64,000 bases of DNA from the IMG/VR virus record IMGVR_UViG_3300011774_000001, positions 64,001-128,000 of that record, one strand, 5' to 3'. Below the pieces are notes generated by a model. It worked only from the letters and a program-made list of their open reading frames with translations, made no database searches and was not told where the DNA came from. This document shows positions 44,553-61,790 of the stretch, in pieces. A program made the position numbers and the translations under genes. Position 1 is the first letter of the stretch. Each line of letters opens with the position of its first letter. The DNA is from a virus (lineage: Duplodnaviria > Caudoviricetes).

Positions 44553-45071
44553 ATGAAAATCAATGTGGCCAAAACGGCACAGGAAAACTTGATCGACCTG
44601 ATCATCGACGCCAACCCTGGTAAGTCGTTGACCGCCGCTCAGTTCACTGCTGCCAACCCTGTCGTTATCCCAGACGACGCCGGTCGCAACACCACCATCG
44701 TTCTGTCCGCTGTTGTGGGTCAGGGCTACGGTGCTGGCGACGTTACTTTCAAATACACCCGTCTGGGTCTGGCTGGCGTTAACGTCACCCCAGTTACCAG
44801 CGTGCGCGTTGCTGAAGGCGATGACCAGGCTGCCTCGCTGGCCAAGGTGCTGGCTGCCGTTGGCATCCTGGGTAGCGAAGTTGATGCGTCTGACTACGCT
44901 GCACCGACTGACGACACCGTTCCAGGCATGATCACCCTGACCCCGAAGGCCAACTCCGCGTTGTACGTCGGCGAAGAAGTGGTCATCGAACTGACCTGGG
45001 CGCCTGAAGTAGAGCCTACCCTGGCTGACACCTTCACCACCACCGATCTGGACGGCTTCGAGCCTGCCTAA
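44553..45071 (+). CDS. Virion fibre-family paralog (domain A + C-terminal tail)
   Basis: GRNT...Y.G.....Y.RL.L motif; ends PTLADTFTTTDLDGFEPA. Confidence 0.7.
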   Translation: MKINVAKTAQENLIDLIIDANPGKSLTAAQFTAANPVVIPDDAGRNTTIVLSAVVGQGYGAGDVTFKYTRLGLAGVNVTPVTSVRVAEGDDQAASLAKVLAAVGILGSEVDASDYAAPTDDTVPGMITLTPKANSALYVGEEVVIELTWAPEVEPTLADTFTTTDLDGFEPA

Positions 45072-45081
45072 GTCGTAATGG

Positions 45082-45124
45082 CGACATACGCCCCCTGCCC
45101 TTTGCGGGGCAGGGGGTTTATGCT
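45082..45124. terminator. Bidirectional hairpin + TTATGC
   Basis: GACATAC-GCCCCCTGCCC-TTTGCG-GGGCAGGGGGT-TTATGC. Confidence 0.65.
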
Positions 45125-45813
45125 CATGCTGGTTCAAACCCGTTAAGGCTTTTGTTCTCAAACACTTCGGCCAATGTAGGCTCAGCACCCATGGTTGCAA
45201 TGCTGCCCGGTACAAAGAAGTAGCTCTCTGCACCCGCTACCAAATAGATGGAGTTGGCAGTAACCCGGCATTTGGTCAGGTCAAAGTCAGCATCGACCAC
45301 CAGAATACCCTTGGCACGAATGGCTGCAATCACTGCAGTCATGTTGGGTAGCGAACTACCCGGTACCAACTTCATGGCCGCCAATACGTTCATGTAGCGA
45401 CGTTCGTAGATTACCGTCACTGGAACGCGGTACGCACTGGTTTCTGAAGGCGACAGCAGAACATTGGTTCGTGCAGGACCAACGCTCAGATCCGCAACAG
45501 GCTTACCAATGATCAGTGTGTTCCAGTCGGGCACTACGGTCATCTTGCGGGTCACCATGACCTTGAAGTTGTCCAGCCCCGTGATGTCGTAAGGCAGTGT
45601 AACAAAGCCTTCCTGCACCTGAGCGACCAACACCCGAGCACTGGCAGTACGGATCACTGGGGCAGATTTCTGGGCCACCAGTGTCCGCACGCTGGCTACC
45701 CTGGCCGCGGGATGGGGTTTCTCAATCACAATGCCCTGTACAGAGAACAAGTCTGTGGAGACCCTCTCCTGTTCAACGACCAGACCTTGCAGTGTAAACA
45801 GATCAGTATCCAT
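45124..45813 (-). CDS. Fibre-family adaptor with four N-terminal beta-strand repeats
   Basis: TDLFTLQGLVVE/TDLFSVQGIVIE and ARVASVRTLVAQ/IRTASARVLVAQ, then domain A; ends LNGFEPA. Confidence 0.7.
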   Translation of the reverse strand: MDTDLFTLQGLVVEQERVSTDLFSVQGIVIEKPHPAARVASVRTLVAQKSAPVIRTASARVLVAQVQEGFVTLPYDITGLDNFKVMVTRKMTVVPDWNTLIIGKPVADLSVGPARTNVLLSPSETSAYRVPVTVIYERRYMNVLAAMKLVPGSSLPNMTAVIAAIRAKGILVVDADFDLTKCRVTANSIYLVAGAESYFFVPGSIATMGAEPTLAEVFENKSLNGFEPA

Positions 45814-45823
45814 GGAATTCCCC

Positions 45824-46879
45824 TTAACGTGCTACTACGGTAAGGGAAACCTCTAGCCCGTTAAGGGCAGTGGCTGGGACAGATTCAGCGCTGTTGCGAG
45901 AACCGTTGATCAGTCGAACTGCAGGACCTGTCAGGGCCACCGCCGAGTTGGGGGACAGGGTAACACTGTCGTTGTGAGTGCCGCGAGTAATCTTGGCAAC
46001 AACGTCCGAAGGACTGCCCTGGGCATAGGCACAACGACTTTGCACCATGACACCACTGACGTTAGCCACGTTTGGCAAGACGTACCCATCCACTGGTTTC
46101 AGTTTAAGCACTGGATTGACGCCGTTACCCAGGATGTACTTACCTGTGTCCGTCGCAAAGTCACGCCATGCCTGAACATTGGCCAGGTTAGTCATGTCCC
46201 AATCCGTGCTGGACACGACCTGCATTGGAATGTCGGTGATGTCCTGAGGACCCAGACGACCACTGGGTGTGTCATCGCCGATGTCTGCGGTAACGTAGAT
46301 GTCGGTCATCCAGATACCTTCGGTACCACTGATCGGGAAACCCAATGCCCAGGTATTGGCACCGAACTCGGCCTTATCGGTCGTGTCAGTAACTGTGTTG
46401 ATCCACTGGAAGCGGCCATCGATGTACGCGGATATCGTGCGGTCAGTGCGGTTGAATACCAGCTCCAAATACCACTCCGTCACGTTGGCCGGAATGTTCT
46501 GCATCCAGTATGCCCCGCGCAGGGTTTTGAAGACAGGGAAGTTCAGGGGGGTGGTAGGTGTGCCAAGCTTACGCTTGAGACGCAGACCGATCGTGAACAC
46601 GTTAGCAGAGGCGGGTACCAGGCTACCGATGTTCATGACGTACTGGTTGAAAACGTTGACAATACCGTAACCAGTATAACCACCCAACCAATATTTGTTC
46701 CCCACCTTCTCTACACCGAGACCCCATGGCTGACCACCCGAGCCCCAGTTGGCACCGGCGTTGACCAGAGGAATTGCACCAGGCAACCCTAGGGCACCAG
46801 CCCCCGCTGCAGTGGCGATGGCAGACAGTTCAATGCCTGTCTGTACGCCAGCAAAGTTTTCAAGTTGTGTAATGGCCAT
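45824..46879 (-). CDS. Putative receptor-binding protein, ConA/LamG-like lectin fold
   Basis: WYLELVFNR....AYIDG and DIYV....RLGP motifs shared by three paralogs. Confidence 0.65.
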   Translation of the reverse strand: MAITQLENFAGVQTGIELSAIATAAGAGALGLPGAIPLVNAGANWGSGGQPWGLGVEKVGNKYWLGGYTGYGIVNVFNQYVMNIGSLVPASANVFTIGLRLKRKLGTPTTPLNFPVFKTLRGAYWMQNIPANVTEWYLELVFNRTDRTISAYIDGRFQWINTVTDTTDKAEFGANTWALGFPISGTEGIWMTDIYVTADIGDDTPSGRLGPQDITDIPMQVVSSTDWDMTNLANVQAWRDFATDTGKYILGNGVNPVLKLKPVDGYVLPNVANVSGVMVQSRCAYAQGSPSDVVAKITRGTHNDSVTLSPNSAVALTGPAVRLINGSRNSAESVPATALNGLEVSLTVVAR

Positions 46880-47961
46880 TATGCAGGGTCCTTCAGAGTA
46901 ATGCTGAAGTCAACCGAGGCCAGAGGCACGTTGGCCGCTACAAACTCGGCACGAGGGCGTGTCCAGTTGACCACGTCAGCAGTCGTGGTGGTAAAGTTGA
47001 TCGCACTGGCGTTGGTGTACTTGGTTCCATCCACGGTCTGCGAGATATCGACCTGTGGTATGACTGCGGCACTACGCCGGCCACCCACCAGAACACCTGC
47101 AGCCAACACCTTACCTGGAATTGCGGAGAGGTCCAGTTTGAAATTGACAGCGCTGTTAGCGTCCGTCAGTTTCACAGTGCCGGCAGCCTTGGACCAAGCA
47201 CCACCCGAGGCCGTGTTAACCAGCGGTTGGTTGAGGATGGTTTGGGCAGTGGCAGCATCCTTGTTGGCACCCACTACGCCGGTGACTGTCACCGGGGCAC
47301 GTTTGATGTTCACAGGACCCAAGCGTTTAGTGACGCCAATGCCGTCATCCACCACGATGTAAATGTCGCGAACCTTGAACTGGTCGGGGCTGACTTTTGC
47401 CGCACCGTTGTTGGTCCATGCGGTTGCGTTCTTGAACGGAACACCTAAGGTAAGTTCGCGACCGTTGTTGATGTCCGAATACAGTTGAGGGAACGACGTC
47501 AGGGCTGATTCACTAATAAGTGCACCGTCCTTGTAGACACGGAATTTATTGCCGGTGAAGTCGATCTCAATTTCCAAGAACGCTTCTGGTGTACCGGTGC
47601 CCCCCACAAACCCGAGAGCAGCGCCGTTACTCAATAGCAGGTCATTGACTGGCTGGCCGGTGGCCGCTAGTCTGAACAGCGCGTAACCGGCGTTGTTGAC
47701 GTTGCGATAACGAGCGCCGAACCAGTAGACCTTGGTTTTGTCGAGCGTCAGCGGTAGAAGGTATTGGCCGCGGTATTCACCAACACCGTTACCCTCGACC
47801 GCACACATCCAACCCGCTTCATCAATGCAGGGGTTCTGCACCCAACTGGTCGAGCTGTAATAGACACCGACGTCACTCATCGGGACAAGGCCAAAGCTTT
47901 TCAGGCTGGCCCCTCCGATAGAACGTAGGTTGTCGAAACAATAAGCAGCTAAGAGACTCAT
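46879..47961 (-). CDS. Putative receptor-binding protein, ConA/LamG-like lectin fold
   Basis: FLEIEIDF....RVYKDG; DIYI....RLGP. Confidence 0.65.
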   Translation of the reverse strand: MSLLAAYCFDNLRSIGGASLKSFGLVPMSDVGVYYSSTSWVQNPCIDEAGWMCAVEGNGVGEYRGQYLLPLTLDKTKVYWFGARYRNVNNAGYALFRLAATGQPVNDLLLSNGAALGFVGGTGTPEAFLEIEIDFTGNKFRVYKDGALISESALTSFPQLYSDINNGRELTLGVPFKNATAWTNNGAAKVSPDQFKVRDIYIVVDDGIGVTKRLGPVNIKRAPVTVTGVVGANKDAATAQTILNQPLVNTASGGAWSKAAGTVKLTDANSAVNFKLDLSAIPGKVLAAGVLVGGRRSAAVIPQVDISQTVDGTKYTNASAINFTTTTADVVNWTRPRAEFVAANVPLASVDFSITLKDPA

Positions 47962-47970
47962 GGTACCTCC

Positions 47971-49062
47971 TTACACGGAACCAAGACTGAGAGAGGTAAA
48001 GACCGTCGCCAAAGCAGGCTTACGACCTACTGTGAGCGTGTATGTGCCCTTAAAGAGCGGAGAGCTGGCCTTTGCCTGCAGCGTCAGTGTAAACGTCGTC
48101 AGGCTGTCCTGAGCGACCACAGGGAGATCTTCCACATCGTAGATGGTGAAGGGGATGCCTGTGATGGCTTGGATGGTTGGCAAGATGTGATGGATCGTTG
48201 TATCCTCCAAGACCTTGGTGGTCGTGGGGAATGTGAAGGCCGACATCCCTGCCAGATCCAGACGATTGTAGAACACCTTGTGCGACTGGGTACTCTGGCC
48301 GTCAGCGCTTGGGTAGGACACGTCCCGCTGGATCTCGCGGATACTGGAAGGTCCTGGGTTGAGCGATGCAGTATTGGCGAAGGTCACACCCGCTGCTGCC
48401 ACAGTCCGACCCAGTACGGTATTCAGCTGTGCAACAAAGGCCGCTTTGGCAAAGTACGCTGGCAACGCCGCCAAGGTGGCTGGCCAAGCCAGTCCTGCAA
48501 ACTCCCAGTCACGATCGGACGGACACATCCAACCCACGTTGATCTGGGTACCCGGTTGGAAGTACATCGAGTTGGCAGAGGCTTCCAGTGTGCAAGGACC
48601 ATCTTGGGGGATGGGTGCAGACTTGAAGTCAGAGGGGGTTAGTGCTGTGCCGAAGGTGGTGTTGAAACGTGTCACCACCTGATCGGTTGTGGTCATGACC
48701 TTGTCGTACTTGAGGATGTCGAGATCCCGATTCACGACAATCTCTTTTGCAGGGAACCGGTAGTACGCAAAATCCATGTTACCACGGTAACCAGAACTTG
48801 GTTTGAACACCACATTCAGCTTGGTGTTGAAACGGTCCTTGACCTCAGCCACAGGTACACCCAGCGTCAGATCGGCGGCAACGAAACCTTTTTGATGGGT
48901 CACGTTGATCGAGTCAATGATGTGCTGGGTAACCTCGACCTTGAACGGGTCTGTGGGGAGGGTGGACAAAACAGCGTAGGCCGCGACCTGATCCACCCGC
49001 AACACATCCGGCTGCTTAAGGATCGCGTAGGCCGCGACCTGATCAACTTTTACAGTTGCCAT
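47971..49062 (-). CDS. Fibre-family adaptor with two N-terminal VDQVAAYA repeats and tandem A domains
   Basis: VKVDQVAAYAIL/LRVDQVAAYAVL; FNT..YRG..F.YYR and FYNRLDL. Confidence 0.7.
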   Translation of the reverse strand: MATVKVDQVAAYAILKQPDVLRVDQVAAYAVLSTLPTDPFKVEVTQHIIDSINVTHQKGFVAADLTLGVPVAEVKDRFNTKLNVVFKPSSGYRGNMDFAYYRFPAKEIVVNRDLDILKYDKVMTTTDQVVTRFNTTFGTALTPSDFKSAPIPQDGPCTLEASANSMYFQPGTQINVGWMCPSDRDWEFAGLAWPATLAALPAYFAKAAFVAQLNTVLGRTVAAAGVTFANTASLNPGPSSIREIQRDVSYPSADGQSTQSHKVFYNRLDLAGMSAFTFPTTTKVLEDTTIHHILPTIQAITGIPFTIYDVEDLPVVAQDSLTTFTLTLQAKASSPLFKGTYTLTVGRKPALATVFTSLSLGSV

Positions 49063-49073
49063 CGACGTTCACC

Positions 49074-50210
49074 TTAAGAAGTGGCTGCCAACTTGACGGA
49101 GTATTTGTCAAGCTCTGTTTTGGCAGGTGTGGCGGCAATCGACTTGAACGCCATGCGGCGAGCAAAGCCCGTGGTCAACAGATTGCTACGGGTAAGGTCG
49201 AAGGTTTGCTGGAAAGAGGCGGTCAGGTTCTGTTCCGACGCACCACTCTTGAGCAGGTCCCCACGCAGGTTTGAAGTACCACTCGAACCCAACGCATCTA
49301 CCTGCACCATGATCGCCTTGACGCTGTCCTGATCACTGATACCAGTGGTGTCGAAAGTCACCAGACCATTGGCATCAGTGTCGGTCACGTTGACGGTGGT
49401 TGGGGCTGCGTCTGGGGTACCGAAAGCCAGGTGCGTGTCGTTGAACGATTCGACAATGGTCTTGCCCGCAGTGTTGGGTGTCCAGGTGGGGGCGTTGACC
49501 GCCTTGACTGGCATGTTTTTGAGAACAACAGGGCCGACCTTCTTGACCATGTCGTTGGCCGCGATCTCGGACAGGATAATGTCCTTGAAAGCGTCTTCAC
49601 GATACTGCTCGGCATAACCACCGGCCTGGTTGGTACGCACACCAATCCAGAAGGCCACCAACGAGGCACCCGCCGTAAGCCTTGAGGAAACAGACATGGT
49701 CTTGAGATAAACGTTGTCGCGATAGACGATGACCTCGCCGGTGTCGCGATCCACGGTGATCTCGAAGTAATGACTGTTTCCTACCACGCTAGGAGCTGCC
49801 CAGTCTGTTCCCAACACGATCGACAGGGGCTGCAGGGAGTCAGAAAGACGAAGGCCCGCACTGGCCACCAGACTGGTAGATCCAACGCTACCGTTGAATG
49901 TCACACGGAACCCGAAGGACAACATGGTCTTGGTGGCCTGAATGCCGACTTCGGCATTCTCCAGAAGCGCCTCTACGGTCGCGGTGTATAAACCACCGGA
50001 GTAGTTGGACAGGTTTCGAGCGCGGACAACCAATGCATCTGGGTCGTTACCCTTACGAACACCAAAGGTAGATCCCGTTGGAGCGTAGGCGTAGGGGTCG
50101 GTGTAACCAACGGTCATCCGACTACCCACTACCTGACCCACATAGGGAGTGTTGGTGTTGAAGATGTTGGTGGGCGCTTTGGCAAACCCGTAGGAATCAA
50201 TGATGCGCAT
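49074..50210 (-). CDS. Putative receptor-binding protein, ConA/LamG-like lectin fold
   Basis: YFEITVDR....IVYRDN; DIIL....KVGP. Confidence 0.65.
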   Translation of the reverse strand: MRIIDSYGFAKAPTNIFNTNTPYVGQVVGSRMTVGYTDPYAYAPTGSTFGVRKGNDPDALVVRARNLSNYSGGLYTATVEALLENAEVGIQATKTMLSFGFRVTFNGSVGSTSLVASAGLRLSDSLQPLSIVLGTDWAAPSVVGNSHYFEITVDRDTGEVIVYRDNVYLKTMSVSSRLTAGASLVAFWIGVRTNQAGGYAEQYREDAFKDIILSEIAANDMVKKVGPVVLKNMPVKAVNAPTWTPNTAGKTIVESFNDTHLAFGTPDAAPTTVNVTDTDANGLVTFDTTGISDQDSVKAIMVQVDALGSSGTSNLRGDLLKSGASEQNLTASFQQTFDLTRSNLLTTGFARRMAFKSIAATPAKTELDKYSVKLAATS

Positions 50211-50225
50211 GCTGAACTCCTAGGC

Positions 50226-50549
50226 TTAGTTGCCGTAGTGCATGTACAGGCGGCGGCTGTCCCGACCTTCCAGATCCTGGAGGCGAATACCTACCACGCG
50301 CTTGAACAAGGGGTTGGTGGGCAGCATCGTGTCGTTGTCACCGGTGTAGATGACTTCGGCATTCTGCAGAGAGGTCAGACCATCGCCAGCCGGCACCCAC
50401 TGACCTTGGGAATCAGTCGGGTCGTACTCGCCCAATGCGGCAGAGAGGGTCATGATTTGTTCGTCCGAGAGTGGACCTACTTCCAGCTCATCCAAGAAGT
50501 CCTTGAACGGGGAGAAGTCAACGCGGAAGAAGTTGGGCAAAATTTGCAT
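50226..50549 (-). CDS. Stand-alone fibre-family domain B
   Basis: DFS..., SL.NA.VIY.G.N, TN..FKRV, LYMHYGN. Confidence 0.65.
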   Translation of the reverse strand: MQILPNFFRVDFSPFKDFLDELEVGPLSDEQIMTLSAALGEYDPTDSQGQWVPAGDGLTSLQNAEVIYTGDNDTMLPTNPLFKRVVGIRLQDLEGRDSRRLYMHYGN

Positions 50550-50551
50550 GG

Positions 50552-51049
50552 TTAACTCCAGTCGAAATAAGAGCTGGTGATGGCTGCCGAGATTGGTGGA
50601 AGACCACCACTATTGAGCGTACAGCTACCTTTCCAGAAGATGCCCGTGGCTTTTGCAGTCAGGGGGATCTTGAACGTTCCGTCACCGTTGTCGACCAGTG
50701 CTGCATCTTCGACGTCATTGGCGTCCAGAAGAACGCCCCACGTTTTGAGGATGTAGGGGAAGCAGTCGTAAACACGAGTAGCTCCAGTCAGCACGGTGGT
50801 GGGTGCGGGGGCTGCACTGTTGCCCAGATGCGCCAGATCAACGCGGGTGTACTTGAACGAACGGTAGTCCTTGTACGTGGGGTTGGTCCCCTGCGCGGTG
50901 AGTTTGATTTTGGTATCAAACCCTTCTGGATCATTCACCAAGGCACTGGGGGTAGAGAACACCCAGAGGTCGGGCGACGAATACGTCAGAGAGTGGATGG
51001 CCTGCAACTGAATGAGCAGGCTGATCTTGGAACCTTGTTTCAAGTCCAT
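50552..51049 (-). CDS. Stand-alone fibre-family domain A
   Basis: FDTKIKL...Y....F.Y.RVDL; W.G. Confidence 0.65.
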   Translation of the reverse strand: MDLKQGSKISLLIQLQAIHSLTYSSPDLWVFSTPSALVNDPEGFDTKIKLTAQGTNPTYKDYRSFKYTRVDLAHLGNSAAPAPTTVLTGATRVYDCFPYILKTWGVLLDANDVEDAALVDNGDGTFKIPLTAKATGIFWKGSCTLNSGGLPPISAAITSSYFDWS

Positions 51050-51056
51050 GGTTCAC

Positions 51057-51950
51057 CTACACCTTGTAATGAAGCAGGAATTTACCCACGAACCAACCAC
51101 CTGCAGCAGGCGGCGTAATCACCACCACGTTGTTGTAGTCTGTGGAGTTTGCCTCAGGCACGTTGACGTTGGGTAGGGCATACTTGATGCAGCGAGCATC
51201 TTGCATACCGAACTTCGTGGCAGCATCAACATAAGCGTTGAGCTTGCGGCCCGAGACCAGACTCATGTACCCAACCAAGTCCTTGGCCATAGCAGTCGCC
51301 GGCAAGACACGTAGAGTGGTCAGAGTCTGCAGCAGTGCACTGAACTTGGAGAAGTCAGCCCCGTAGGTCATGAAGTCTGCCAAGTTATCTGGATTGCCAC
51401 CTGGAGCCACACCGCTGACCAATGTCAACAGAGCTGGGGTGGTGGCAGGAACCTGTTCACTGACTGGTTTCTTGGTGGCCTTGCGGTTCCATCGGAACGA
51501 CCCAATCCAAGCCGGGTTGGTGGCTGGGAAGCCCCAGATGTACGCAGTGCCCAATGCAGCGGTGACTACAGCGCGGTCAGCATCGCTGGCAATGAAGTTG
51601 GTGCCGTACTTCTGGTTGATCCAGCGCATGGCTGATTCTACCTTGATGGCAGCGCCGTTCATGTCTGATGGTGTGGCGTAATCGTCAATTATTGGCACGC
51701 CTTGTTGGAACAAGACGTCCGAAGACATGCGACGATAGGTGAGCACCGTGGTGGCCATGTAGCCAGAACCAGCCTTTGGCATCACAGAGATCTGTGTGTT
51801 GCGAATCCCCTGACCAGTGATCGCTGCCGGAACACCCAAACGACAGTTATCTGGCGTGAGTTTGTACGGCAGCTGAGGATTGTCCCGATTGATCAAGTCA
51901 AAGACCAATTCGGCAGATGTTTTTCGATAGTCTAAGTCCATCTTCTTCAT
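51057..51950 (-). CDS. Fibre-family paralog (A+B)
   Basis: RNT...Y.....YRR; ends GKFLLHYKV. Confidence 0.7.
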   Translation of the reverse strand: MKKMDLDYRKTSAELVFDLINRDNPQLPYKLTPDNCRLGVPAAITGQGIRNTQISVMPKAGSGYMATTVLTYRRMSSDVLFQQGVPIIDDYATPSDMNGAAIKVESAMRWINQKYGTNFIASDADRAVVTAALGTAYIWGFPATNPAWIGSFRWNRKATKKPVSEQVPATTPALLTLVSGVAPGGNPDNLADFMTYGADFSKFSALLQTLTTLRVLPATAMAKDLVGYMSLVSGRKLNAYVDAATKFGMQDARCIKYALPNVNVPEANSTDYNNVVVITPPAAGGWFVGKFLLHYKV

Positions 51951-51991
51951 CCCAGTTGGAAGGGGCCGGGGAATACCCGGCCACTATGCCG

Positions 51992-52876
51992 TCAGTCCGC
52001 CGAGTTCGGGTTATCCGGGTCGTTGAAGTGCAGGTAGAAACGGCCGGTTGGTGTGGTTACACCAGCACGCAGTTCCAAACACATCACGTACTTGTACGAC
52101 TGGTTGGTGGGAAAGACCATGGAGTTCAGACCACAGAAGATCACATTGGCGCCGTTGAGCGACCAGGTGTTGCTGCTGTCGGAGTTATTCCACAGCGCAG
52201 CGCCTGGACCCTGATCGAGTGCCTTGAGTGCTGTCACCAAAATGTCGGCGTTAGCAGAAGACAGTACGCCTTCAGCCATGGCCAGCAATTGATCCCGGTA
52301 GCCTGTTAGGTTGAGCGGGTAGGTGTACAGCAGTGCCGAGGTCTGGGTCGCCGGGTCGGCCACTGGATAGTTCAAACCATTCAACGCCTTGACCGTGGTC
52401 AGGGTGTCGATGTTTGCACCACCTTGAACAACGTCAAAGGACAATTGACCCAGCCACAGTGGCGAGGTGTCCTTGGCTTTGATAGTCACCGTACCAGCAC
52501 CCTGCGCATCCAACACCACAGGCTCACTGAGAATATCCTGCGGACCCAGCACAAGGCCGAAGTAGTACAGGATGTTCGACAGCAGGTCGAGGGTGGTTGC
52601 AGGCTGGTATACCGGCAATGGGCGGGTAGGGCGGAACTTGGCGAAGTCTGCCAAAGTAAGACGATCGTACTTGACGGTCGTCTTACCTTCAAACCCAGCA
52701 CCCTGCTTAGGAGTTACCTTGGCGTAGGTGTTCTTGGTGGTGGTACCTTCCATCCACGTCCCTGCGATCGGTTTGGGATCTGACCAGGCGAGGTTGGTTG
52801 CAGTGAACTGCGTGGTACTGTTGGCCGCATTCAAATAGTTGAAGAGGGCCTGCTTGGAATCTACGAAAACAGACAT
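51992..52876 (-). CDS. Fibre-family paralog (A+B)
   Basis: KNT..G....YDRL; LNGLNYP; GRFYLHFN. Confidence 0.7.
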   Translation of the reverse strand: MSVFVDSKQALFNYLNAANSTTQFTATNLAWSDPKPIAGTWMEGTTTKNTYAKVTPKQGAGFEGKTTVKYDRLTLADFAKFRPTRPLPVYQPATTLDLLSNILYYFGLVLGPQDILSEPVVLDAQGAGTVTIKAKDTSPLWLGQLSFDVVQGGANIDTLTTVKALNGLNYPVADPATQTSALLYTYPLNLTGYRDQLLAMAEGVLSSANADILVTALKALDQGPGAALWNNSDSSNTWSLNGANVIFCGLNSMVFPTNQSYKYVMCLELRAGVTTPTGRFYLHFNDPDNPNSAD

Positions 52877-52888
52877 GGCTGCCTCCTC

Positions 52889-53776
52889 TTAAAGGTTGAA
52901 GTACAGAATCCACTTGCCTGCAAGGCGTGGGTTGCTGGCGTCGGAGACCGTGAGGATCTTCGCGTAGGCGAAGCCCGGCTTGTTGGCCTCGGGGTGAGCA
53001 GCGCTCGGCAGTGCCACACCAGCGAACGTGCCGTTGGACATGTTCCAAGGCGCAGTGTCGGCGTTGTAGGTGCCGATGGCGATCGGCCAACTGGTCTGAC
53101 GCTGAATCTCGGCGATCACGCCGCCAGCACCACTGAGGTTGACACTGCCGCCAGCCGTCCAACCCTGGGCCAGAGCGTACTCGGTGAAGTCCAGCCCCGC
53201 GAACACAAACTCAGGACGCAGGCTGCGATCTGGTTTGGCCACGAAGTCGTTACCGCCTGGCCATTGACCACCGTCCAATTCAGTGACTGTCAGGATGTCG
53301 ATACCAATCTGCTGTAGACCACGGTTCCAGGTAACGGTGAAGCTACCCACATAAGCCAAGTTGTCAGCCACGGCCGACCACACACGCGGAGTAGCGTTCT
53401 GGCTGTAGCTCCAAGCAGCGCCAGAGATGCCAGACACTGTCAGGTTCACACCGTACAACTGGTTGACGTAACCGATAGCCTGAGCCATGGTCATGGTGGC
53501 ACCGTCGTTCAGCCAGCGTGTGAAGGCGATGTTGTTACCACGGAACAGACTGGTCAGGTCACGGCGACGATACAGAACTTCCAATACGCCTCGGTACTTA
53601 CTGGACGACTTGGCCGTGATTTTGAGTTTGGTGTTACGGCCGAAACTGTCAGCGGCCACAACAACCGGTTTACCGAAGATGAAATCGGTGGAATTGATGG
53701 GCCATGGCAGCGTCGGGTTATCCGCGTTGATCTGCGCGATGGCCTCTTCGAGAGGACTGCCTGTGAGAATTGGCAT
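52889..53776 (-). CDS. Fibre-family paralog (A+B)
   Basis: GRNT..YRG...YRRRDL; GKWILYFN. Confidence 0.7.
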   Translation of the reverse strand: MPILTGSPLEEAIAQINADNPTLPWPINSTDFIFGKPVVVAADSFGRNTKLKITAKSSSKYRGVLEVLYRRRDLTSLFRGNNIAFTRWLNDGATMTMAQAIGYVNQLYGVNLTVSGISGAAWSYSQNATPRVWSAVADNLAYVGSFTVTWNRGLQQIGIDILTVTELDGGQWPGGNDFVAKPDRSLRPEFVFAGLDFTEYALAQGWTAGGSVNLSGAGGVIAEIQRQTSWPIAIGTYNADTAPWNMSNGTFAGVALPSAAHPEANKPGFAYAKILTVSDASNPRLAGKWILYFNL

Positions 53777-53786
53777 GTGCTTTTAC

Positions 53787-54554
53787 CTAGGCTGGATTGT
53801 AGTGGAAGTACATGGCGCCTTGTAGGAGGCCGCTCTGCACAGTCGACTGAATAACGACACGTTGGAACGCAGGGTTGGCATCTGGTACTTCTGCCGTTGC
53901 CTTGTCCACAACCTTGCCTTTAACCCAGTCAGGGATACCCATGGCACGAGCCACTGTTTGAACGAGCGCCCAATCGGAATACTCGCCTTTGGCAGTTGGT
54001 TTCAATGCGTCTTGGATACCAGAGAAGTCCGCACCCCAGGTCCACATCCGGCTCGATTGTCGGTTGGTGGCGTTAGGGTGTTTGAAGATGTCCAGATCGG
54101 TCGTACCAATCATCGAGTCCAGCCACGAAGGACCGAACGACAGATTAAGGTCCAGACCACCGAACCACTGCAGCGAGGTCTCTGCAATCTCGATACGCGA
54201 AGAGATCGCCTCACCATCACCCAGCACAGGTGGGGTGTACTCTTCGAAGTCTTCGGGGTTGATGTCTAGGCCAAACTTGTTAGACAGGCCCAGCACAATC
54301 ATTTCACGGGTCATGGTTTCCAGAGAACGGAAATCAAAAGACGTCACGTAATCTGCCAGATCCATGCGGTCATAGTAGACATCGACTTCACCGTAGTAGC
54401 CACGCCCCGGAATACCAGAGATGGTCACCAACGTGTTACGGTCGTGCTCTGTGGTCGGCTGGGGTACCGAGAACGAGAGCCGCTTTTCCGTGAACTCCTT
54501 GGGTGGAGTGAACATGTCGTTTAGAACGACAAACATCCGTTCGGCGTTAGCCAT
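53787..54554 (-). CDS. Fibre-family paralog (A+B)
   Basis: RNT..YYG...YYDRMDL; GAMYFHYN. Confidence 0.7.
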   Translation of the reverse strand: MANAERMFVVLNDMFTPPKEFTEKRLSFSVPQPTTEHDRNTLVTISGIPGRGYYGEVDVYYDRMDLADYVTSFDFRSLETMTREMIVLGLSNKFGLDINPEDFEEYTPPVLGDGEAISSRIEIAETSLQWFGGLDLNLSFGPSWLDSMIGTTDLDIFKHPNATNRQSSRMWTWGADFSGIQDALKPTAKGEYSDWALVQTVARAMGIPDWVKGKVVDKATAEVPDANPAFQRVVIQSTVQSGLLQGAMYFHYNPA

Positions 54555-54564
54555 GGTTCACCCC

Positions 54565-55407
54565 CTATGCCAGGTCTGGATCGGGTTCATTAAAGTGAAG
54601 CGTCAGCTCACCTGTCATGCCCAAGCAGTTGGCATCCACCAACACGACTTTAATGAAGCGATCGTATTTGGGATTGGCTTCCGTTGGATGGTCGGCACAG
54701 ATACCCACCATGCGGATCGTGGCACCTGCCAAACTGAAACGACTGATACCTTCGGTCTTCCAGTCATCCCCCGTCTGTGTTTTGAGCAGAGGGCCCAATA
54801 CCTCAAGAGGGGCGTCGCCCACCACAATGTCCTTGAGCTGCTCGTAGGAGGTCGTGAAGTCACGCCAGTACGAATAGATCTGGGCATACGGTCGAGTAGT
54901 AGTAGCCGCTGGATAACGCAGGCCGTTGAGACGGGTCACTTTGAGGTAATCCGCCAACTGGTAGCCACCCGGACGGGTACCCACCGAGACAGTGCCAGTC
55001 CACGCCAAGCTGGTAGGCAATGCCTCCAACTCAACCACGGCGTTGTGCACTTTCTCTTCGTCGGTCAATGCACGGATCAATACATCTTTATCCGTGAGCA
55101 GCGTACCGTAGCGTTTGTTCATGGCCGCGATGATGTCGCTGGTGCTTTGCGGCTCTTTGACCGGCACCATCAGGGTCACTTGCGCAGCCAAGTCGGACAA
55201 TGGGTTGCGATGGTAGCGGAACGTCTCGGAACCGGAGTACGCTGTCTCTTGGTTTTTGGCAGTGAGTACGATCGTCGTGTTGAACTGCCCTACCGGAGTA
55301 ATCGCGATAGGTGCTTCGAAGATGTATTCACTGGCCACCAAGTCAAGCTTGTTCAGCCGGTTGATCGATTCCACCATCACATCCAAAGAGGGTTTATAAA
55401 GCGACAT
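54565..55407 (-). CDS. Fibre-family paralog (A+B)
   Basis: FNT..YSG...YHR; LNGLRYP; GELTLHFN. Confidence 0.7.
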   Translation of the reverse strand: MSLYKPSLDVMVESINRLNKLDLVASEYIFEAPIAITPVGQFNTTIVLTAKNQETAYSGSETFRYHRNPLSDLAAQVTLMVPVKEPQSTSDIIAAMNKRYGTLLTDKDVLIRALTDEEKVHNAVVELEALPTSLAWTGTVSVGTRPGGYQLADYLKVTRLNGLRYPAATTTRPYAQIYSYWRDFTTSYEQLKDIVVGDAPLEVLGPLLKTQTGDDWKTEGISRFSLAGATIRMVGICADHPTEANPKYDRFIKVVLVDANCLGMTGELTLHFNEPDPDLA

Positions 55408-55418
55408 AATCGTGCCCT

Positions 55419-56252
55419 TTAGGAAGTGAGGTTATAGTGGAAGTAGGCGATACCCGAGTAATCCATGGTTTGCACGTTGGCAATATCCTTGATTACCTGA
55501 ACAAGCACTCGATCGTAGTCCTTGTTAGCTTCCGGTACTTGTGCCGTACTGTAGTCGTACATGGGATTGTTCCACGCCACTGGCCAGTTCGAGTAACCGA
55601 ACGAAGCCATCAGTGTCCGCATGGCGTTCCCGTCGTTAACGATGTTGTAGAACGGGTGCTTGCGAACTTTGGCGTAATGCTCCGACCAGTCTTCACTGTA
55701 AGTGAACAACGTGATCGGTCGCTTGTTCAGCGTGTCCAGCGTTTGACCCGGATGCAGCATGACATCCAGATCGCGTACGGCAACGACCTCAGACAACAGA
55801 GGGCGCCGGCGGGTAAAGCGAATAACAAACTGGCCGATGTAGGACAATGAAGTGGTCAGGGCGACGAGGGGGATGTTGACCTCTTCGTTTTCGCCCAACC
55901 AGCTGTAGTCAACCTGCTCGAAGTCGTCGACATCCAATTGGATGCCCAACTCTTGGCCGATATACGGCAACATCGAGTGCAGGTTTCCGTTACTCAGCCC
56001 ATTGATACGGGGACGGATATCACCAAACGCGCTTGTAAGGTCCATCCGCTCGTACTCAACGGGGACCATGCCTTCATAGGTCGTATCGGGAATCGGCACA
56101 ACGACACTACGGACCAGGGTAGGTAGGGGACCCTGGACAAACTTAGGCGTGGTAAAAAGCACATCGTCCGGGCTCAACGGGGAGGGAAGGACATTCTGCT
56201 GATTGATGAGATCAACTAAAACGTCCCTGCCCTTTCCAGGGACAAGGATCAT
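55419..56252 (-). CDS. Fibre-family paralog (A+B)
   Basis: Start moved to 56252 (SD CAGGAG); YEG...YERMDL; GIAYFHYN. Confidence 0.7.
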   Translation of the reverse strand: MILVPGKGRDVLVDLINQQNVLPSPLSPDDVLFTTPKFVQGPLPTLVRSVVVPIPDTTYEGMVPVEYERMDLTSAFGDIRPRINGLSNGNLHSMLPYIGQELGIQLDVDDFEQVDYSWLGENEEVNIPLVALTTSLSYIGQFVIRFTRRRPLLSEVVAVRDLDVMLHPGQTLDTLNKRPITLFTYSEDWSEHYAKVRKHPFYNIVNDGNAMRTLMASFGYSNWPVAWNNPMYDYSTAQVPEANKDYDRVLVQVIKDIANVQTMDYSGIAYFHYNLTS

Positions 56253-56348
56253 TTTTCTCTCCTGAAACCGTGATCTGAAGGGAAGGAATGTGTGCCGGAT
56301 GGGAAACATTCACATAGGATTAGCCCTTGCTGAAATAAGATAGGTAAG

Positions 56349-56381
56349 GGCATAAAAGAGAGTGGCCCGCAGGCCACTCTC
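56349..56381 (-). terminator. Hairpin + TTTTATGCC
   Basis: Minus strand GAGAGTGGCC-TGCG-GGCCACTCTC-TTTTATGCC. Confidence 0.65.
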
Positions 56382-56403
56382 CCACGAGTCCTTTCGCACC
56401 GCC

Positions 56404-56958
56404 TTACGGGCCAGCCGGAGGGGTTGGGTAGTTCAGACCGCTCAGGGTGGTCACGGTGATCACGTCGGACAATGGGATGTCTTCGGCGGTCAGGGTCACG
56501 CTCAGGGATTCCAGGAAGACGTAGGAGTCTGCGTCTGCCGGGATCTGGATGACCTTGGTTTCGTTGGGAGTACCTTCCCAATCACCGATGTCGCCGTCGA
56601 TGTAATCGTCGACGGTCAGGTTGATGCCGAGTGCAGTGTTGATCTCGTCGATCAGGTCTGCGAACTTGACAGCGTCACCTACCGGAATCTCCAACGCGCC
56701 GGTGATACCAGCGGCGGCGATGAAGCCGTCGAGGGCCAGACGGTTGTAGTTCACGCTGACTGCACCGGTGTAACCCGAGTTAGCCAGAGCAGTTACTTCC
56801 AGGGAGGTGTTGGCCACTGGATTTTCGCCAGTCGCCGCCTGTGGGACACCCAGCGCCATTACAGTGCTGGAGATGGTCTTACCGGGGTTGTCGAAGTTGA
56901 TGAGATCGAAAATGATCTCCTTCGGGGCTTTCTTGAAGTCACTGACATGGAGGGCCAT
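56404..56958 (-). CDS. Fibre-family paralog (domain A + tail), probably abundant
   Basis: ATG 56958; ANT..GYTG...YNRL.L; ends LSGLNYP; strong codon bias. Confidence 0.7.
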   Translation of the reverse strand: MALHVSDFKKAPKEIIFDLINFDNPGKTISSTVMALGVPQAATGENPVANTSLEVTALANSGYTGAVSVNYNRLALDGFIAAAGITGALEIPVGDAVKFADLIDEINTALGINLTVDDYIDGDIGDWEGTPNETKVIQIPADADSYVFLESLSVTLTAEDIPLSDVITVTTLSGLNYPTPPAGP

Positions 56959-57058
56959 GGGGACACCTTTTTGGTTGCTGCATGATGGAAAAGGACCCGT
57001 TAGTAAAGGGCCACATATCATAGTAAAGTTATAGACAACCGCCTACCCGGAGACAACA

Positions 57059-57730
57059 ATGCAGGGGCTATTCATTACGTTGGAGGCTACAGAGGGTGCT
57101 GGCAAGGGCACTTCTCGTGGTTTCCTCGACGACTGTTTTAAGGCCTCTGGCCGAATGACCACACTAACGCGTGAGCCGGGTGGCACTCCATTTGCTGAAC
57201 GCATTCGAGAATTGCTACTAGCGCCCAGCGATGAGCCGGTGTGCAATGAAACTGAACTGTTGTTGATGTTTGGTTCTCGCATGCAACACATTCACAGCGT
57301 AATCAACCGGTATGTGGAAATGGGGTCTGTGGTGCTCTGTGAGCGATTTACCGACAGCACCTATGCGTATCAGCATTACGCCCGTGGAATGCCTAAGGCG
57401 TTAATTGACGGCCTTGTGGAGTTACTTAAACCACCTGTGCCTGACTACACCTTCATCCTCGACATCGATCCTGAGATTGGCATGGCCAGGGCCAGTGCTC
57501 GTGGTGTTCTGGATCGTATTGAACAGGAACACATCGACTTCTTCCATCGTGCTCGGAACGGTTTTCTGACACGAGCCAAGGAAGATACTTCAGGGCGTTT
57601 CCGTATTGTCGATGCAACGCCACCGATTCCAGAAGTACGCAAACAATACCTTGATCACCTACTCAACGATAATCTAATTACACCAGAGGCTGCTGCGCTG
57701 GTGAGGGAGAAATACGATGTCGCAGAATAA
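57059..57730 (+). CDS. tmk: Thymidylate kinase
   Basis: FITLE..EGAGK.T P-loop, TREPGGT, (E)RFTDSTYAYQ, LDRIEQE. Confidence 0.95.
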   Translation: MQGLFITLEATEGAGKGTSRGFLDDCFKASGRMTTLTREPGGTPFAERIRELLLAPSDEPVCNETELLLMFGSRMQHIHSVINRYVEMGSVVLCERFTDSTYAYQHYARGMPKALIDGLVELLKPPVPDYTFILDIDPEIGMARASARGVLDRIEQEHIDFFHRARNGFLTRAKEDTSGRFRIVDATPPIPEVRKQYLDHLLNDNLITPEAAALVREKYDVAE

Positions 57731-59195
57731 TTTCAACTTTGACCCAGCCCTGGTAAATGCCGAGTTTGAAAATAATCGGCAGGCCATCATCGATGGTTTG
57801 AAGGGTTTTCTTAAACTCGATTACAGCTTAGGTCATGATCCCATTCCAGAGACAGCGGCCGAAGCTGCCAGACGCTGGCTGCGCCCGGTTATTGATTGGG
57901 CTGAGAATCGTAAGGGCCACCCGGAGAAAATGTCCCGTGCCGAGGCCGAAGAGGCGGTAGACGGTATCCACAAGGACATCCGCGAACAACATGAGAACCT
58001 TGATCGGTCCATGGCACTGGTTAAGGAGATGCAGGCACAGCCCAACGCAGACCCTGCGCTGGAGTTCGTTCTTAAGACTCTAGAAGGTGCCAAGCGCGGT
58101 GGGGGCGTTGACCTGATCGAGATGTGCAATCGCGGCAAGCGTCTGTCTGACGGCCGGAGCCAGGAAGTCAAAGACATCATCCCAGTAAGCTTGCAGCAGA
58201 TCGCCCAGCGACTGCGCAGCCGGACAGGGCCAGTGGTCAGTCCTCTGGAAGTTGCAGAAGCTATCGAGGCACTACCAGAGAGCCTGCGTAAGCATCGCGA
58301 CTTGGTGGGCCGTGGACTGCTCAAGCCTCAGGTCACCTACGACCCGATAGTGACTGAAGTCAAGCAGTACATCGAAGACCTCGATGCTGCCCGTGGTTAT
58401 CTGATGCAGGCGGACATGCCTGAGCAGTTGGAACCCGTACTCGACTACATGCAAGCCCATCTGCGCTGGCTGATGACCCCACAACACGACTTCAAGCCGG
58501 TCATGGAACTCAAGCACATGGCCGAGATCATGCGCGACTGGATCGCAGCAGAAAGCCTGGCTTCGAATGTGAAGTTCGACATGAGCAACATGGTCGAGTC
58601 GCTGGACAAGTTGATTGCCCTGCACGTAGCTGAAGAACTGCCGGTCAAAGTTGAGGGGATTGACGGCCCTGCCAAGGTGAGTCGTCTGGGTTGGGCGATG
58701 GGCGTTATTAGTGATGCCATCAATGCTCATCCGTTCGACATTTCCCAGAAAGACCTGCGTGAAGTTCACACCTGGATGGAATCGATTGTGGTGAACACCC
58801 GCGGCTATGACAACCTCGGCAAAGAAGAATACGCATTGGTTCCTCTGCCGGGTAACCTGCCGGGCATCGCGATCGATTCGGTTCGTCAATACCTGGTCGA
58901 ATACGGCGAAGGGCGTCACACTGCTGAAGACCTGCGTGAAGCAGCCTGCCGTTCTGGCTCCCCAGCAATCTGCTACATGCCCGAATGGTTCGCGCAGACT
59001 TACGGCCACATGGGCAAGGGCGGCTTTGCCTCTCTGCTGTTCCACACCATGGTTTCCATAGCTGCAGAAACCACCCCCAAGAAGATCTACGTCAGTGGTA
59101 CGGAGCGCAAAGCGCTGGAGGCTGCCTTGAAGGCCGGCCAGACCACTGCATGGACAGACTTCATCCAGAATGCCGATAAGCGAGATGCGAAATGA
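57717..59195 (+). CDS. Hypothetical protein (492 aa, mostly helical)
   Basis: Long ORF overlapping tmk and DHFR; coding-like codon usage. Confidence 0.75.
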   Translation: MSQNNFNFDPALVNAEFENNRQAIIDGLKGFLKLDYSLGHDPIPETAAEAARRWLRPVIDWAENRKGHPEKMSRAEAEEAVDGIHKDIREQHENLDRSMALVKEMQAQPNADPALEFVLKTLEGAKRGGGVDLIEMCNRGKRLSDGRSQEVKDIIPVSLQQIAQRLRSRTGPVVSPLEVAEAIEALPESLRKHRDLVGRGLLKPQVTYDPIVTEVKQYIEDLDAARGYLMQADMPEQLEPVLDYMQAHLRWLMTPQHDFKPVMELKHMAEIMRDWIAAESLASNVKFDMSNMVESLDKLIALHVAEELPVKVEGIDGPAKVSRLGWAMGVISDAINAHPFDISQKDLREVHTWMESIVVNTRGYDNLGKEEYALVPLPGNLPGIAIDSVRQYLVEYGEGRHTAEDLREAACRSGSPAICYMPEWFAQTYGHMGKGGFASLLFHTMVSIAAETTPKKIYVSGTERKALEAALKAGQTTAWTDFIQNADKRDAK

Positions 59196-59887: not shown

Positions 59888-59890
59888 CTC

Positions 59891-60265: not shown

Positions 60266-60819
60266 CAAACCACTACGCTTATCAGCTGCATGGTGCTTAC
60301 AAGAATCTGGTGTCTGACGTTGTTCACGCATTGCGTGGCAGCGAATGGCCAGAAGAGGTGCAAGTGCTGGACGCATTGCCAGGCATTCCTTCTGGGGTGC
60401 CTGACCTGGACGTTCAGTTCATTGTAACCAAGATGGGTTCGATCAGTCTGTCGGCTACTTCTGGCGACAGCGTTCTGGCACTCTGGAGGTTGGAGCCTGA
60501 AGTAACCGGTATCAATGAAGGCACGTATCAGCTGATGATGATCGGCAAGATGCAGGCGGCCTTTGATCGGTTCTGGGATGTCTTTCATTCCAAGTGTACT
60601 CGCATCGACATGAACCACAATCGTCGTGGTGTGCATGCACCCACCATGAATTCGCGCATCTTCTTTACCGAGAAGGTATTGCGCTTGTGGCTGAGTGAAT
60701 CGGTTGGACTGGTGTTCCGTATCCGTCCTGGTGAAATCAGTGTGGGGCAAGACCTTTACCACACCAACCGCTCGTGGCGTCGTAACGTGCGCGAGTTGGT
60801 AGGTCTCGGTGCAAAATGA
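60262..60819 (+). CDS. Hypothetical protein
   Basis: ATGA overlap. Confidence 0.65.
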   Translation: MTNHYAYQLHGAYKNLVSDVVHALRGSEWPEEVQVLDALPGIPSGVPDLDVQFIVTKMGSISLSATSGDSVLALWRLEPEVTGINEGTYQLMMIGKMQAAFDRFWDVFHSKCTRIDMNHNRRGVHAPTMNSRIFFTEKVLRLWLSESVGLVFRIRPGEISVGQDLYHTNRSWRRNVRELVGLGAK

Positions 60820-61241
60820 AAACCCCCATCAACTCTGTATTGGAAGAGTTTGTTAATGACGTAGGGCTAGCCCTGGGCATGGACTGGCGCTACCTTTACC
60901 AACCGTACTACGACGACCCCTCTGCGGGTCTGGAGATTGAGATCTCGGTCTACGGAATCTTTATCTCCTATCCAACTGGCTACAACCAGGAACGAACAAC
61001 GGTCACCTACGGGATTAGCGACAAACATAACCCGGTGGATTGGGAAACTCTCCGGGCGGGTTTGATCTTCTTCTATCGGTTGATCGGGCAGCATGTGTTA
61101 CCAGACTGCGTCACCCAGAAACCTTGTGGGTTGACCAAGTTTGCAGTGGGCATGACCAAGGCAGTGTTGCAAGGCATGCGCGATAGTCGAGTTGTACTGA
61201 TGTCATTTAAAGACGGGCAGAACGACGTACGTTTCAGGTAA
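60816..61241 (+). CDS. Hypothetical protein
   Basis: ATGA overlap. Confidence 0.6.
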   Translation: MKTPINSVLEEFVNDVGLALGMDWRYLYQPYYDDPSAGLEIEISVYGIFISYPTGYNQERTTVTYGISDKHNPVDWETLRAGLIFFYRLIGQHVLPDCVTQKPCGLTKFAVGMTKAVLQGMRDSRVVLMSFKDGQNDVRFR

Positions 61242-61242
61242 G

Positions 61243-61283
61243 GGCATAACTGCCAGTCCCGGAGGACTGGCAGGCTTTTATGC
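61243..61283. terminator. Bidirectional hairpin flanked by GGCATAA / TTATGC
   Basis: GGCATAA-CTGCCAGTCC-CGGA-GGACTGGCAG-GCTTTTATGC. Confidence 0.65.
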
Positions 61284-61790
61284 TGCTGGGTAGTTCAGAC
61301 CGCCGAGATTGCGCACGGTAATGATCTCTGACAATGGAATCAGTTGGGGTTTGATTACCATGGTCAGCAACTCACCTTTGTAGAACATGGACTCAGGCGC
61401 GGCGCGCACAACCACGGTGGCCTCGTCTTCGTCCCATTCAATCGGGTCGTTGTGCAGATCAATGGGTTCTACGTTCATGCCGTAGTTGATCTGCAGTGCA
61501 GGGATCAAATCGTGAACCGTGTTGGCTCGGGTATTTAAAGTCAGGTGTTCGATACCCAGGTATTGGGTGAACAACCATTCCAGATCCAACTTATCAAAAG
61601 TGGATTCAACACTCCCCACCCAGCGCTTGGGATCGAGCGAGGTGATGGTCACTGCCGTGTCGCCAACCATTTCTGGATTGTCGTTAGGCCTGAGATTACC
61701 CACATGCAACAGGTCGTAAGGAATCTCATAATCGCTCGCTGCAAAGATCTGATCGAGCAAGATCTCCTTGTGTGGTTTTAGCGTAGACAT
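61278..61790 (-). CDS. Fibre-family paralog (domain A + tail)
   Basis: ATG 61790 with SD CAGGAG; GDT..W.G...FDKLDL; ends LGGLNYP. Confidence 0.7.
   Translation of the reverse strand: MSTLKPHKEILLDQIFAASDYEIPYDLLHVGNLRPNDNPEMVGDTAVTITSLDPKRWVGSVESTFDKLDLEWLFTQYLGIEHLTLNTRANTVHDLIPALQINYGMNVEPIDLHNDPIEWDEDEATVVVRAAPESMFYKGELLTMVIKPQLIPLSEIITVRNLGGLNYPAA

Follow-up and report, generated by a model that had tools for sequence, protein, structure and literature searches.

What does a phage build from sixteen neighbouring genes, most of which combine the same two domains with the same short connector? This question is raised by positions 44553 to 61790 of a 64,000-nucleotide (nt) stretch of viral DNA, hereafter the window, which is G000:C1:64001-128000 of a 230,984-bp IMG/VR virus record with a completeness estimated at 83%. 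An earlier note on this DNA, made by reading its letters, had proposed a fibre locus in which the connector of one subunit threads into the next. We conclude that the locus is a large expansion of virion-protein paralogues of the family DUF7941 (Pfam PF25613) and, by homology with cultured phages, that its monomers probably link head to tail into threads at the baseplate; we give this reading a probability of about three in four. The DUF7941 mechanism was proposed in 2026, and the locus is a large, tidy new example of it, not a new kind of system. The published family model and the idea of the earlier note are the same and were reached independently; for the phage of the window the model would hold by homology.

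Judged from its genes, the genome is that of an uncultured chimallivirus, a nucleus-forming jumbo phage of the phiKZ type. It encodes PhiKZ_MCP, a multisubunit RNA polymerase beta subunit, a phiKZ-type head protease, a terminase and, at C1:173980-175602 (C1 coordinates are those of the record), a homologue of the phiKZ nuclear-shell protein chimallin (E 2.5e-26). The available text of a preprint on phage Goslar (bioRxiv 10.64898/2026.04.21.720040) calls the DUF7941 module exclusive to chimalliviruses. This exclusivity is not strict, since the accessible part of another report of 2026 places DUF7941 in Spiroplasma, both in Spaid-like proteins of a male-killing one and in further species of the genus (PMC13375240).

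We first asked which family the genes belong to. PF25613 is matched by 12 of the 16 locus proteins at E <= 0.01 and 11 of these exceed the 27-bit cut-off; the one below it is the B-only protein 50226, with 22.4 bits (genes are named after their first coordinate in the window). At the same threshold 45124 and three lectin-like genes gave no Pfam match. PHROG 1037 ('virion structural protein') is matched by 13 of the 16. The domains A and B and the connector between them together make up the Pfam family: six genes span profile positions ~1-275, and four end past the linker, at ~164-177.

Separate hidden Markov models (HMMs) for A, connector and B were built from an alignment of 11 paralogues, with 45124 and 47971 left out of the build, and were run against the complete six-frame set of the 231-kb genome, 2,779 fragments. 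At E <= 5e-32 the A model matched 11 genes of the window, 47971 with two A domains, and at 4.5e-5 it matched 45124; a profile of 45124 and two orthologues, compared with the paralogue profile (hhalign), was matched over A and connector (96.9%, E 1.3e-10). This gives 12 A genes and 13 A domains in the window. The B model had exactly 7 matches in the genome, namely the six A+B genes and 50226. Of the 12 A genes, the connector model found nine at E <= 1.2e-6, the connector being weak or truncated in 50552, in 45124 and at the end of 47971. The counts of the earlier note (12 genes with A, six A+B, one B-only, a connector behind most A domains) therefore stand, because the local HMMs and the profile match of 45124 give the same numbers. 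Two more weak DUF7941 genes lie beyond the window, at C1:11595-12815 (406 amino acids, aa) and C1:12815-13381 (188 aa).

The connector itself is well marked. Across 24 orthologues of 56404 no other stretch is as well conserved, L163, V166, G174 and L175 being invariant, and its motif L..(I/V)......L.GL.(Y/F) is shared with Goslar gp22, 31, 33 and 34. When the genome is translated in six frames, a strict pattern, L-x-G-[LF]-x-[YFE]-P, is seen 7 times versus 1.08 expected (at most 5 in 100 shuffles); four of the seven are DUF7941 connectors, two lie in the tail of a baseplate wedge protein treated below and one is in a spurious frame.

Relatives of the locus are visible at the protein level only, since a megablast search of 50000-57000 against 50,697 phage records returned no match; by tblastn, cultured phages reach no more than 39% identity (51992 versus Burkholderia phage FLC9, 39.3%). 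Among PDB structures the paralogue profile finds PHIKZ127 (E 5.7e-20). We also modelled 47971 with AlphaFold2 (AF2) from a 27-row alignment, with a mean predicted local distance difference test (pLDDT) of 84.1. In this model the A domain is a compact alpha/beta globule, and Foldseek matched it to the solved N-domain of phiKZ gp127 (9xqd_0, probability 1.00, template-modelling (TM) score 0.65 on the target, root-mean-square deviation (rmsd) 4.7 Å over 147 columns); all other rows had a probability <= 0.30. The internal connector was modelled at pLDDT 72-79. The strand-like repeats at the N-terminus, four in 45124 and two in 47971, are disordered in the monomer model (pLDDT below 50 for those of 47971) and are not detected by the connector HMM.

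The modules are exchanged between relatives. Two related viral contigs, L004 (231,724 bp, complete) and L005 (140,672 bp), keep the whole array in the same order, including the N-terminal repeats of 45124 and 47971. The orthologue of 47971 in L005 reads repeats-A-connector-B (308 aa) and is followed by a separate A-only gene (164 aa); comparison of the two architectures indicates that B and the second A have been exchanged exactly after the connector. With 47971 as query, the library gave 139 proteins at E <= 1e-3, which include fused forms of ~336-372 aa and both kinds of halves. Two long library matches with several stretches, P0090 (1,690 aa) and P0095 (950 aa), were set aside as bacterial repeat adhesins outside the family. 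The orthologue of 45124 in L005 (L005:17331-18068) ends in two tandem connectors and could be a branch point.

The adjacent genes 50552 (A-only) and 50226 (B-only) had been described as resembling a split gene. They are indeed a split pair, but a conserved one: it is kept in L004, in L005 and, at the 39% level, in FLC9 (gp318/gp317). At their junction, TAA-CC-ATG, a GGAG lies inside the upstream gene and the other two frames carry stops. A recent frameshift or a sequencing artefact was considered and discarded because of these stops, the GGAG before the ATG and the conservation.

The expansion is large but not unique, with 13 PF25613 matches in the genome of the window and 13 each in the genomes of L004 and L005, versus 3 in phiKZ, 10 in Goslar and 15 in FLC9. 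Divergence along the array is uneven: against L004, identity is 95-99% for 54565 and 55419, and 73%, 69% and 60% for 46879, 45124 and 45824, the lectin-like genes and the adaptor 45124 falling in the range of 60-75%. This fast divergence of the distal genes suits parts that may touch the host. Some flanking non-structural genes diverge from L004 as much as the distal genes.

How might such proteins work together? For Goslar, the text of the preprint available to us reports ten DUF7941 proteins that are abundant in virions, ~2,500 copies per virion by mass spectrometry, among them gp22 (N-domain, linker, C-domain) with ~580 copies and gp23 (N-domain, linker) with ~2,140. In AlphaFold 3 models the linker of gp22 or gp23, plus the C-domain, docks on another protomer's N-domain; filaments of purified gp22 are seen by negative stain, and a 'fibre cloud' for host recognition is proposed (bioRxiv 10.64898/2026.04.21.720040). 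The mechanism is thus known by homology, through this docking model and the gp22 filaments. Transferred to the window, domain A would be the globular domain at the N-terminus and the acceptor, the connector would be the linker and the donor, docking on the next protomer's A domain, and B would be an optional C-terminal globular domain. Monomers would join non-covalently into flexible hetero-polymeric threads at the baseplate. The stand-alone A+connector genes 56404, 44553 and 61278 would supply the bulk subunits and the six A+B genes variant links, while the fast-diverging distal genes, that is the three lectin-like ones and the two repeat-bearing adaptors 45124 and 47971, would bind the host surface. 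With the architecture of Goslar gp23, 56404 is our candidate for the major chain subunit. By its domain order, 47971 is a natural covalent A-connector-A head-to-tail pair.

The central proposal of the earlier note, a connector that engages the next subunit and fibres built from monomers, is therefore supported by homology and agrees with the family model published in April 2026. The branched form that it gave to these fibres would follow from the tandem connectors only. For GenBank records its remark holds that the sole annotation given to such expansions is 'virion structural protein', but the 2026 preprint has overtaken it. Several points weigh against the chain. The phage is uncultured and known here from its genes alone. 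Filaments were seen with one purified Goslar protein, not on virions (bioRxiv 10.64898/2026.04.21.720040, as far as available). Finally, the family can be a discrete baseplate part, since phiKZ, with its 3 PF25613 matches, has one gp127/gp126 dimer per star lobe.

This last point leads to the alternative that survives best, namely that the paralogues are outer-baseplate parts of fixed stoichiometry, each with one site or one heterodimer and no open filaments. In the accessible text of the phiKZ atlas, gp127 sits in the outer baseplate at the outer end of the gp139 band, one per star lobe (PMC13250141), and according to the Goslar preprint a gp126-gp127 head-to-tail dimer fits the cryo-electron microscopy (cryo-EM) density there (bioRxiv 10.64898/2026.04.21.720040). 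The six A+B paralogues are, moreover, highly conserved against L004 (87.5-98.6%), as fixed parts would be. However, the copy numbers of gp22 and gp23 in Goslar and the gp22 filaments argue for polymers, the genome of the window has 13 family matches versus 3 in phiKZ, and tandem and internal connectors suit chains better than single sites. We consider fixed parts unlikely. That the paralogues are head or internal capsid proteins, as the filing of PHROG 1037, 2935 and 3589 under 'head and packaging' and the label 'structural head protein' of gp128 in the phiKZ record would have it, is very improbable, since phiKZ gp127 and gp128 are located in the baseplate by cryo-EM (PMC13250141, in its available part; PDB 9xqd, 9xqs) and the PHROG category is merely the label that goes with 'virion structural protein'. 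Just as improbable are conventional trimeric tail fibres or spikes that share their motifs by common descent only: the region is one of virion proteins with lectin-like genes alongside, but 0 of the 16 proteins match tail-fibre, spike or fibre-chaperone families in Pfam or PHROGs, the A domain of the 47971 model is a globule and not a fibrous repeat, and the family literature models docking of monomer on monomer (bioRxiv 10.64898/2026.04.21.720040, available text). The contrast with trimeric fibres of the T4 type drawn in the earlier note is in line with these results.

If DUF7941 monomers do form threads, to what are these attached? The best match of the connector HMM outside the family, among the 2,779 fragments, is a 761-aa protein encoded at C1:9244-11529, ~52 kb before the start of the window (E 3.5e-6). 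From residue 1 to ~650 it matches both PHIKZ128 (9xqs_C, E 1.1e-99) and an 803-aa 'virion structural protein' chain with the length of Goslar gp35 (E 7.2e-106). The available parts of both structural sources describe phiKZ gp128 and Goslar gp35 as a component of the baseplate wedge (PMC13250141; bioRxiv 10.64898/2026.04.21.720040). The wedge gene is followed by the two weak DUF7941 genes mentioned above (406 and 188 aa), and the same order is found in phiKZ and Goslar.

The last ~70 residues of this wedge protein, past the solved part, carry tandem connector motifs. Read by eye, a terminal L-x-G-L-x-(Y/L)-P is present at least once in 9 of 9 metagenome wedge homologues and twice in 6 of 9. We then compared nine homologues: the wedge of the window genome, those of phiKZ and Goslar, and six picked for diversity from 59 records. 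L-x-G-[LFIVM] occurs 18 times in their 990 tail residues versus 6 times in their 5,992 body residues (Fisher p 2.7e-11), and 6 of the 9 tails have at least two. In the wedge protein of Xanthomonas phage Xoo-sp14 (gene 128, L011:1552-3999), an A domain is fused at the C-terminus (residues 689-800, E 1.1e-10); as far as its domain order tells, this fusion ties the wedge C-terminus to DUF7941 by another route.

We also folded the A domain of 56404 (residues 1-157, 25-row alignment) together with the wedge tail (residues 690-761, 10 rows). The score was 0.55 (runs 0.49, 0.58 and 0.55) against 0.01 for the best of 3 controls, a weak pass; at least 71% of contacts are common to the runs, and the pLDDT of the partner is at least 49. 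The mark that it passed was reached by 116 of 157 solved complexes and by 2 of 215 mismatched pairs, and scores <= 0.60 were those of 18 of the 157 and of both mismatches.

From these data we tentatively propose, at odds somewhat below even, that the chains are primed by the tail of the wedge protein (gp128/gp35 family), with its one to five tandem connectors, which suggest a concrete attachment point. Other observations count against this anchor. The tail motif was picked post hoc and the nine homologues are mutually related; the tails of RSL2 and phiKZ are without L-x-G-[LFIVM], and among the nine Xoo-sp14 has none either. By its calibration, a complex score such as ours is wrong in more cases than it is right, except where the guess was likely from the start. 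In the phiKZ atlas, as available, gp128 lies in the inner baseplate, at a distance of five gp139 dimers from gp127 (PMC13250141). Apart from these points, the wedge tail alone had 0 matches at E <= 10 against PDB sequences, and tblastn of the last 209 residues of the protein never aligned beyond residue 137. For Goslar, six sites in the peripheral baseplate are assumed and no anchoring protein is named in the preprint text at hand (bioRxiv 10.64898/2026.04.21.720040); the wedge tail as an anchor is likewise not named in the accessible portions of that preprint or of the phiKZ atlas (PMC13250141).

With such an anchor, several threads could begin at each of the six wedges and form a branched 'cloud' of many threads. 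The modules could then be read as a code of valency: the wedge tail would be donor-only; A+connector, with or without B, donor plus acceptor; 50552 with 50226 an acceptor-only or split unit; the tandem connectors of L005 a double donor; and 47971 a covalent dimer. This code would set the length of the threads, their branching and the sites of lectin-like tips. The fused A domain of the Xoo-sp14 wedge would be the same joint with reversed polarity.

The lectin-like tips would come from 45824, 46879 and 49074, which the earlier note had called lectin genes. They are mutual paralogues (18-25% identity) with only 8 relatives in a search of 5.8 billion proteins. A model of one of them, 46879, was compared with known structures by VIA-align: over residues ~7-208 it resembles peanut lectin (Z 9.3, rmsd 3.7 Å over 158 residues), a baseplate chain of mycobacteriophage Douge (Z 9.2) and CBM66 (Z 9.1), and nearly all of the 24 chains at Z >= 8 belong to the concanavalin A-like lectin/glucanase superfamily; Atlas neighbours lean in this direction too. 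A lectin-like fold is thus plausible, not proven, and the sugar-binding role is putative. What remains of the claim is a likeness at the level of the fold, for the N-terminal half of this paralogue; none of the three proteins has a Pfam lectin or Laminin_G match at E <= 0.01, and Laminin_G_3 appears only as an Atlas neighbour (score 0.92, TM 0.54 by query). On the opposite side, the 46879 model is modest (pLDDT 63.8), a Z of ~9 is barely above the best background Z of 7-8, and the three proteins are without A, connector and B. A hidden DUF7941 domain in them was rejected, as hhalign gave 0.3% and no local A, connector or B HMM matched. Foldseek with the 46879 model gave only whole-chain matches of TM <= 0.25 to beta-sandwich binders with two domains, among them receptor-binding domains of clostridial neurotoxins, allantoicase and meprin, which we read as generic jelly-roll likeness and not as kinship.

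Compared with Goslar, the window has the same Pfam family, the same two architectures (N-domain+linker+C-domain and N-domain+linker), the common connector motif and many paralogues (13 PF25613 in the genome, 10 in Goslar) accompanied by carbohydrate-binding modules, putative ones in the window. In contrast, it holds 15 genes in one array where those of Goslar are in several clusters; its lectin-like modules are separate and without DUF7941, whereas the preprint, in its available text, has gp86, gp92 and gp161 carrying theirs fused behind DUF7941; and it also has a gene with B alone, an A-connector-A fusion and adaptors carrying strand repeats at the N-terminus. As in phiKZ, where gp127 is A+B and gp126 is A-only, family genes adjoin the wedge gene, gp126/gp127 beside gp128 corresponding to the second small cluster of the window genome, and the gp127 N-domain matches our A-domain model (PDB 9xqd). 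Unlike the window, phiKZ has no more than 3 family matches, a single gp127 modelled in each star lobe and a gp128 tail without L-x-G-[LFIVM] (Nat Commun 2026, PMC13250141, as available).

The closest cultured relative of 51992 is in FLC9, whose gp317-gp326 form a contiguous array of genes with A alone, with A+B and split into A-only/B-only, behind which come large non-DUF7941 genes. It differs from the array of the window in the order and number of genes, gp323 (486 aa) has an extra C-terminal part, and all genes of this array are annotated 'hypothetical protein'.

In donor-strand exchange of chaperone-usher pili, an extension of one monomer binds the globular domain of the next and special subunits start and end the chain. 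By analogy, the DUF7941 chain would also polymerise non-covalently by an extension into the next subunit. However, Foldseek with the 47971 model and sequence comparison found no relation to pili, there is no chaperone or usher, and the extension in the window is C-terminal.

Chimalliviruses are model jumbo phages and candidates for therapy, and how they find their hosts is poorly understood. If it is true that DUF7941 threads make the first contact with the host, such arrays are where host range is written. Together with L004, L005 and FLC9, the array offers natural variants, with modules fused, split, swapped and duplicated, from which rules of assembly could be worked out.

Gene calls in the window give 15 adjoining genes at 44553-56958 and one satellite at 61278-61790. 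On the minus strand, 14 tightly packed genes (gaps of -1 to 41 nt) run from 56958 down to 45124; the stand-alone gene 56404-56958 precedes the packed ones across a 151-nt gap, and 44553-45071, on the plus strand, converges on the end of the array. Six unrelated plus-strand genes (4.3 kb), including those for thymidylate kinase and dihydrofolate reductase (DHFR), separate the array from the satellite, and a dCTP deaminase gene just past the satellite overlaps a longer, 315-aa frame of it on the opposite strand. The 16-gene locus of the earlier note is therefore not contiguous; its gene calls and coordinates all hold, save for the start of 56404, which is 56958 (184 aa) and not 56961.

The genes from 55419 to 45124 look like one 14-gene operon. 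Chosen intergenic stretches fold into strong hairpins (Table 1), and as these isolate 56404, 44553 and 61278, the three look like separate units. The hairpin after 56404, a 12-bp stem with a U-run, suggests that this A+connector subunit has an expression of its own, possibly at a high level, and separate units fit the guess that 56404 and 44553 are abundant. Scans for sigma-70 promoters and for terminators, which stayed at or below shuffle expectation, speak against such units. A CTATG-type promoter motif upstream of 56404 was dropped, as it occurs once in the window versus 1.22 times expected.

Table 1. Genes and hairpins of the DUF7941 locus in window coordinates (pTM, predicted TM score)
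Feature	Coordinates	Strand	Evidence
A + C-terminal connector, 172 aa, apparently own transcription unit	44553..45071	+	PF25613 47.4 bits; local A HMM 8.7e-41, connector 1.2e-6
Two-way terminator-like hairpin between convergent 44553 and 45124	45072..45123		12-bp GC stem; -33.5/-28.3 kcal/mol; z -4.7/-5.1
Four short strand-like repeats at the N-terminus + divergent A + connector, 229 aa, end of the apparent operon	45124..45813	-	phrog_1037 E 0.0014; hhalign 96.9%, E 1.3e-10; no Pfam match
Lectin-like paralogue, 351 aa, without A, connector and B	45824..46879	-	18-25% identity to 46879 and 49074; no Pfam or PHROG match
Lectin-like paralogue, 360 aa, predicted N-terminal jelly-roll + second beta domain	46879..47961	-	AF2 pLDDT 63.8, pTM 0.64; VIA-align
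Two strand repeats at the N-terminus + A + internal connector + second A, 363 aa	47971..49062	-	PF25613 90 bits, 2 stretches; AF2 pLDDT 84.1
Lectin-like paralogue, 378 aa	49074..50210	-	phrog_2448 (unknown function) E 8.7e-5; Atlas neighbours including Laminin_G_3 and CBM-cenC-like clusters
B-only, 107 aa, downstream half of split pair	50226..50549	-	Local B HMM 3.2e-35; PF25613 positions 189-274, 22.4 bits
A-only, truncated connector, 165 aa, upstream half of split pair	50552..51049	-	PF25613 61.2 bits; connector HMM 0.044
A + connector + B, 297 aa	51057..51950	-	PF25613 122.9 bits, spanning 3-275 of 276 profile positions
A + connector + B, 294 aa, best match to the family	51992..52876	-	PF25613 178.7 bits; tblastn top FLC9 39.3%
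A + connector + B, 295 aa	52889..53776	-	PF25613 95.3 bits
A + connector + B, 255 aa	53787..54554	-	PF25613 133.1 bits
A + connector + B, 280 aa	54565..55407	-	PF25613 162.1 bits
A + connector + B, 277 aa, first gene of the apparent operon	55419..56252	-	PF25613 127.1 bits
Terminator-like hairpin then U-run, directly 3' of 56404	56340..56403	-	12-bp stem, -29.5 kcal/mol, z -3.3
A + connector, 184 aa, looks monocistronic	56404..56958	-	PF25613 101.4 bits; 24 orthologues
Two-way terminator-like hairpin between 60816-61241 and 61278	61242..61277		10-bp stem, z -3.5/-4.7
Satellite A + connector, 170 aa	61278..61790	-	PF25613 93.3 bits

Two further observations concern the reading frames of the region. 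Antisense open reading frames at 44511-45233 (minus strand, 240 aa), 54421-55422 (plus strand, 333 aa) and 56362-56985 (plus strand, 207 aa) overlap real DUF7941 genes, and a naive caller that takes the longest frame prefers them over the true genes. Between the genes for thymidylate kinase and DHFR, 57717-59195 (plus strand) encodes a 492-aa protein with no PHROG match at E <= 1e-5; L004 and L005 have it at only 45-60% identity, whereas the neighbouring genes are at ~90%.

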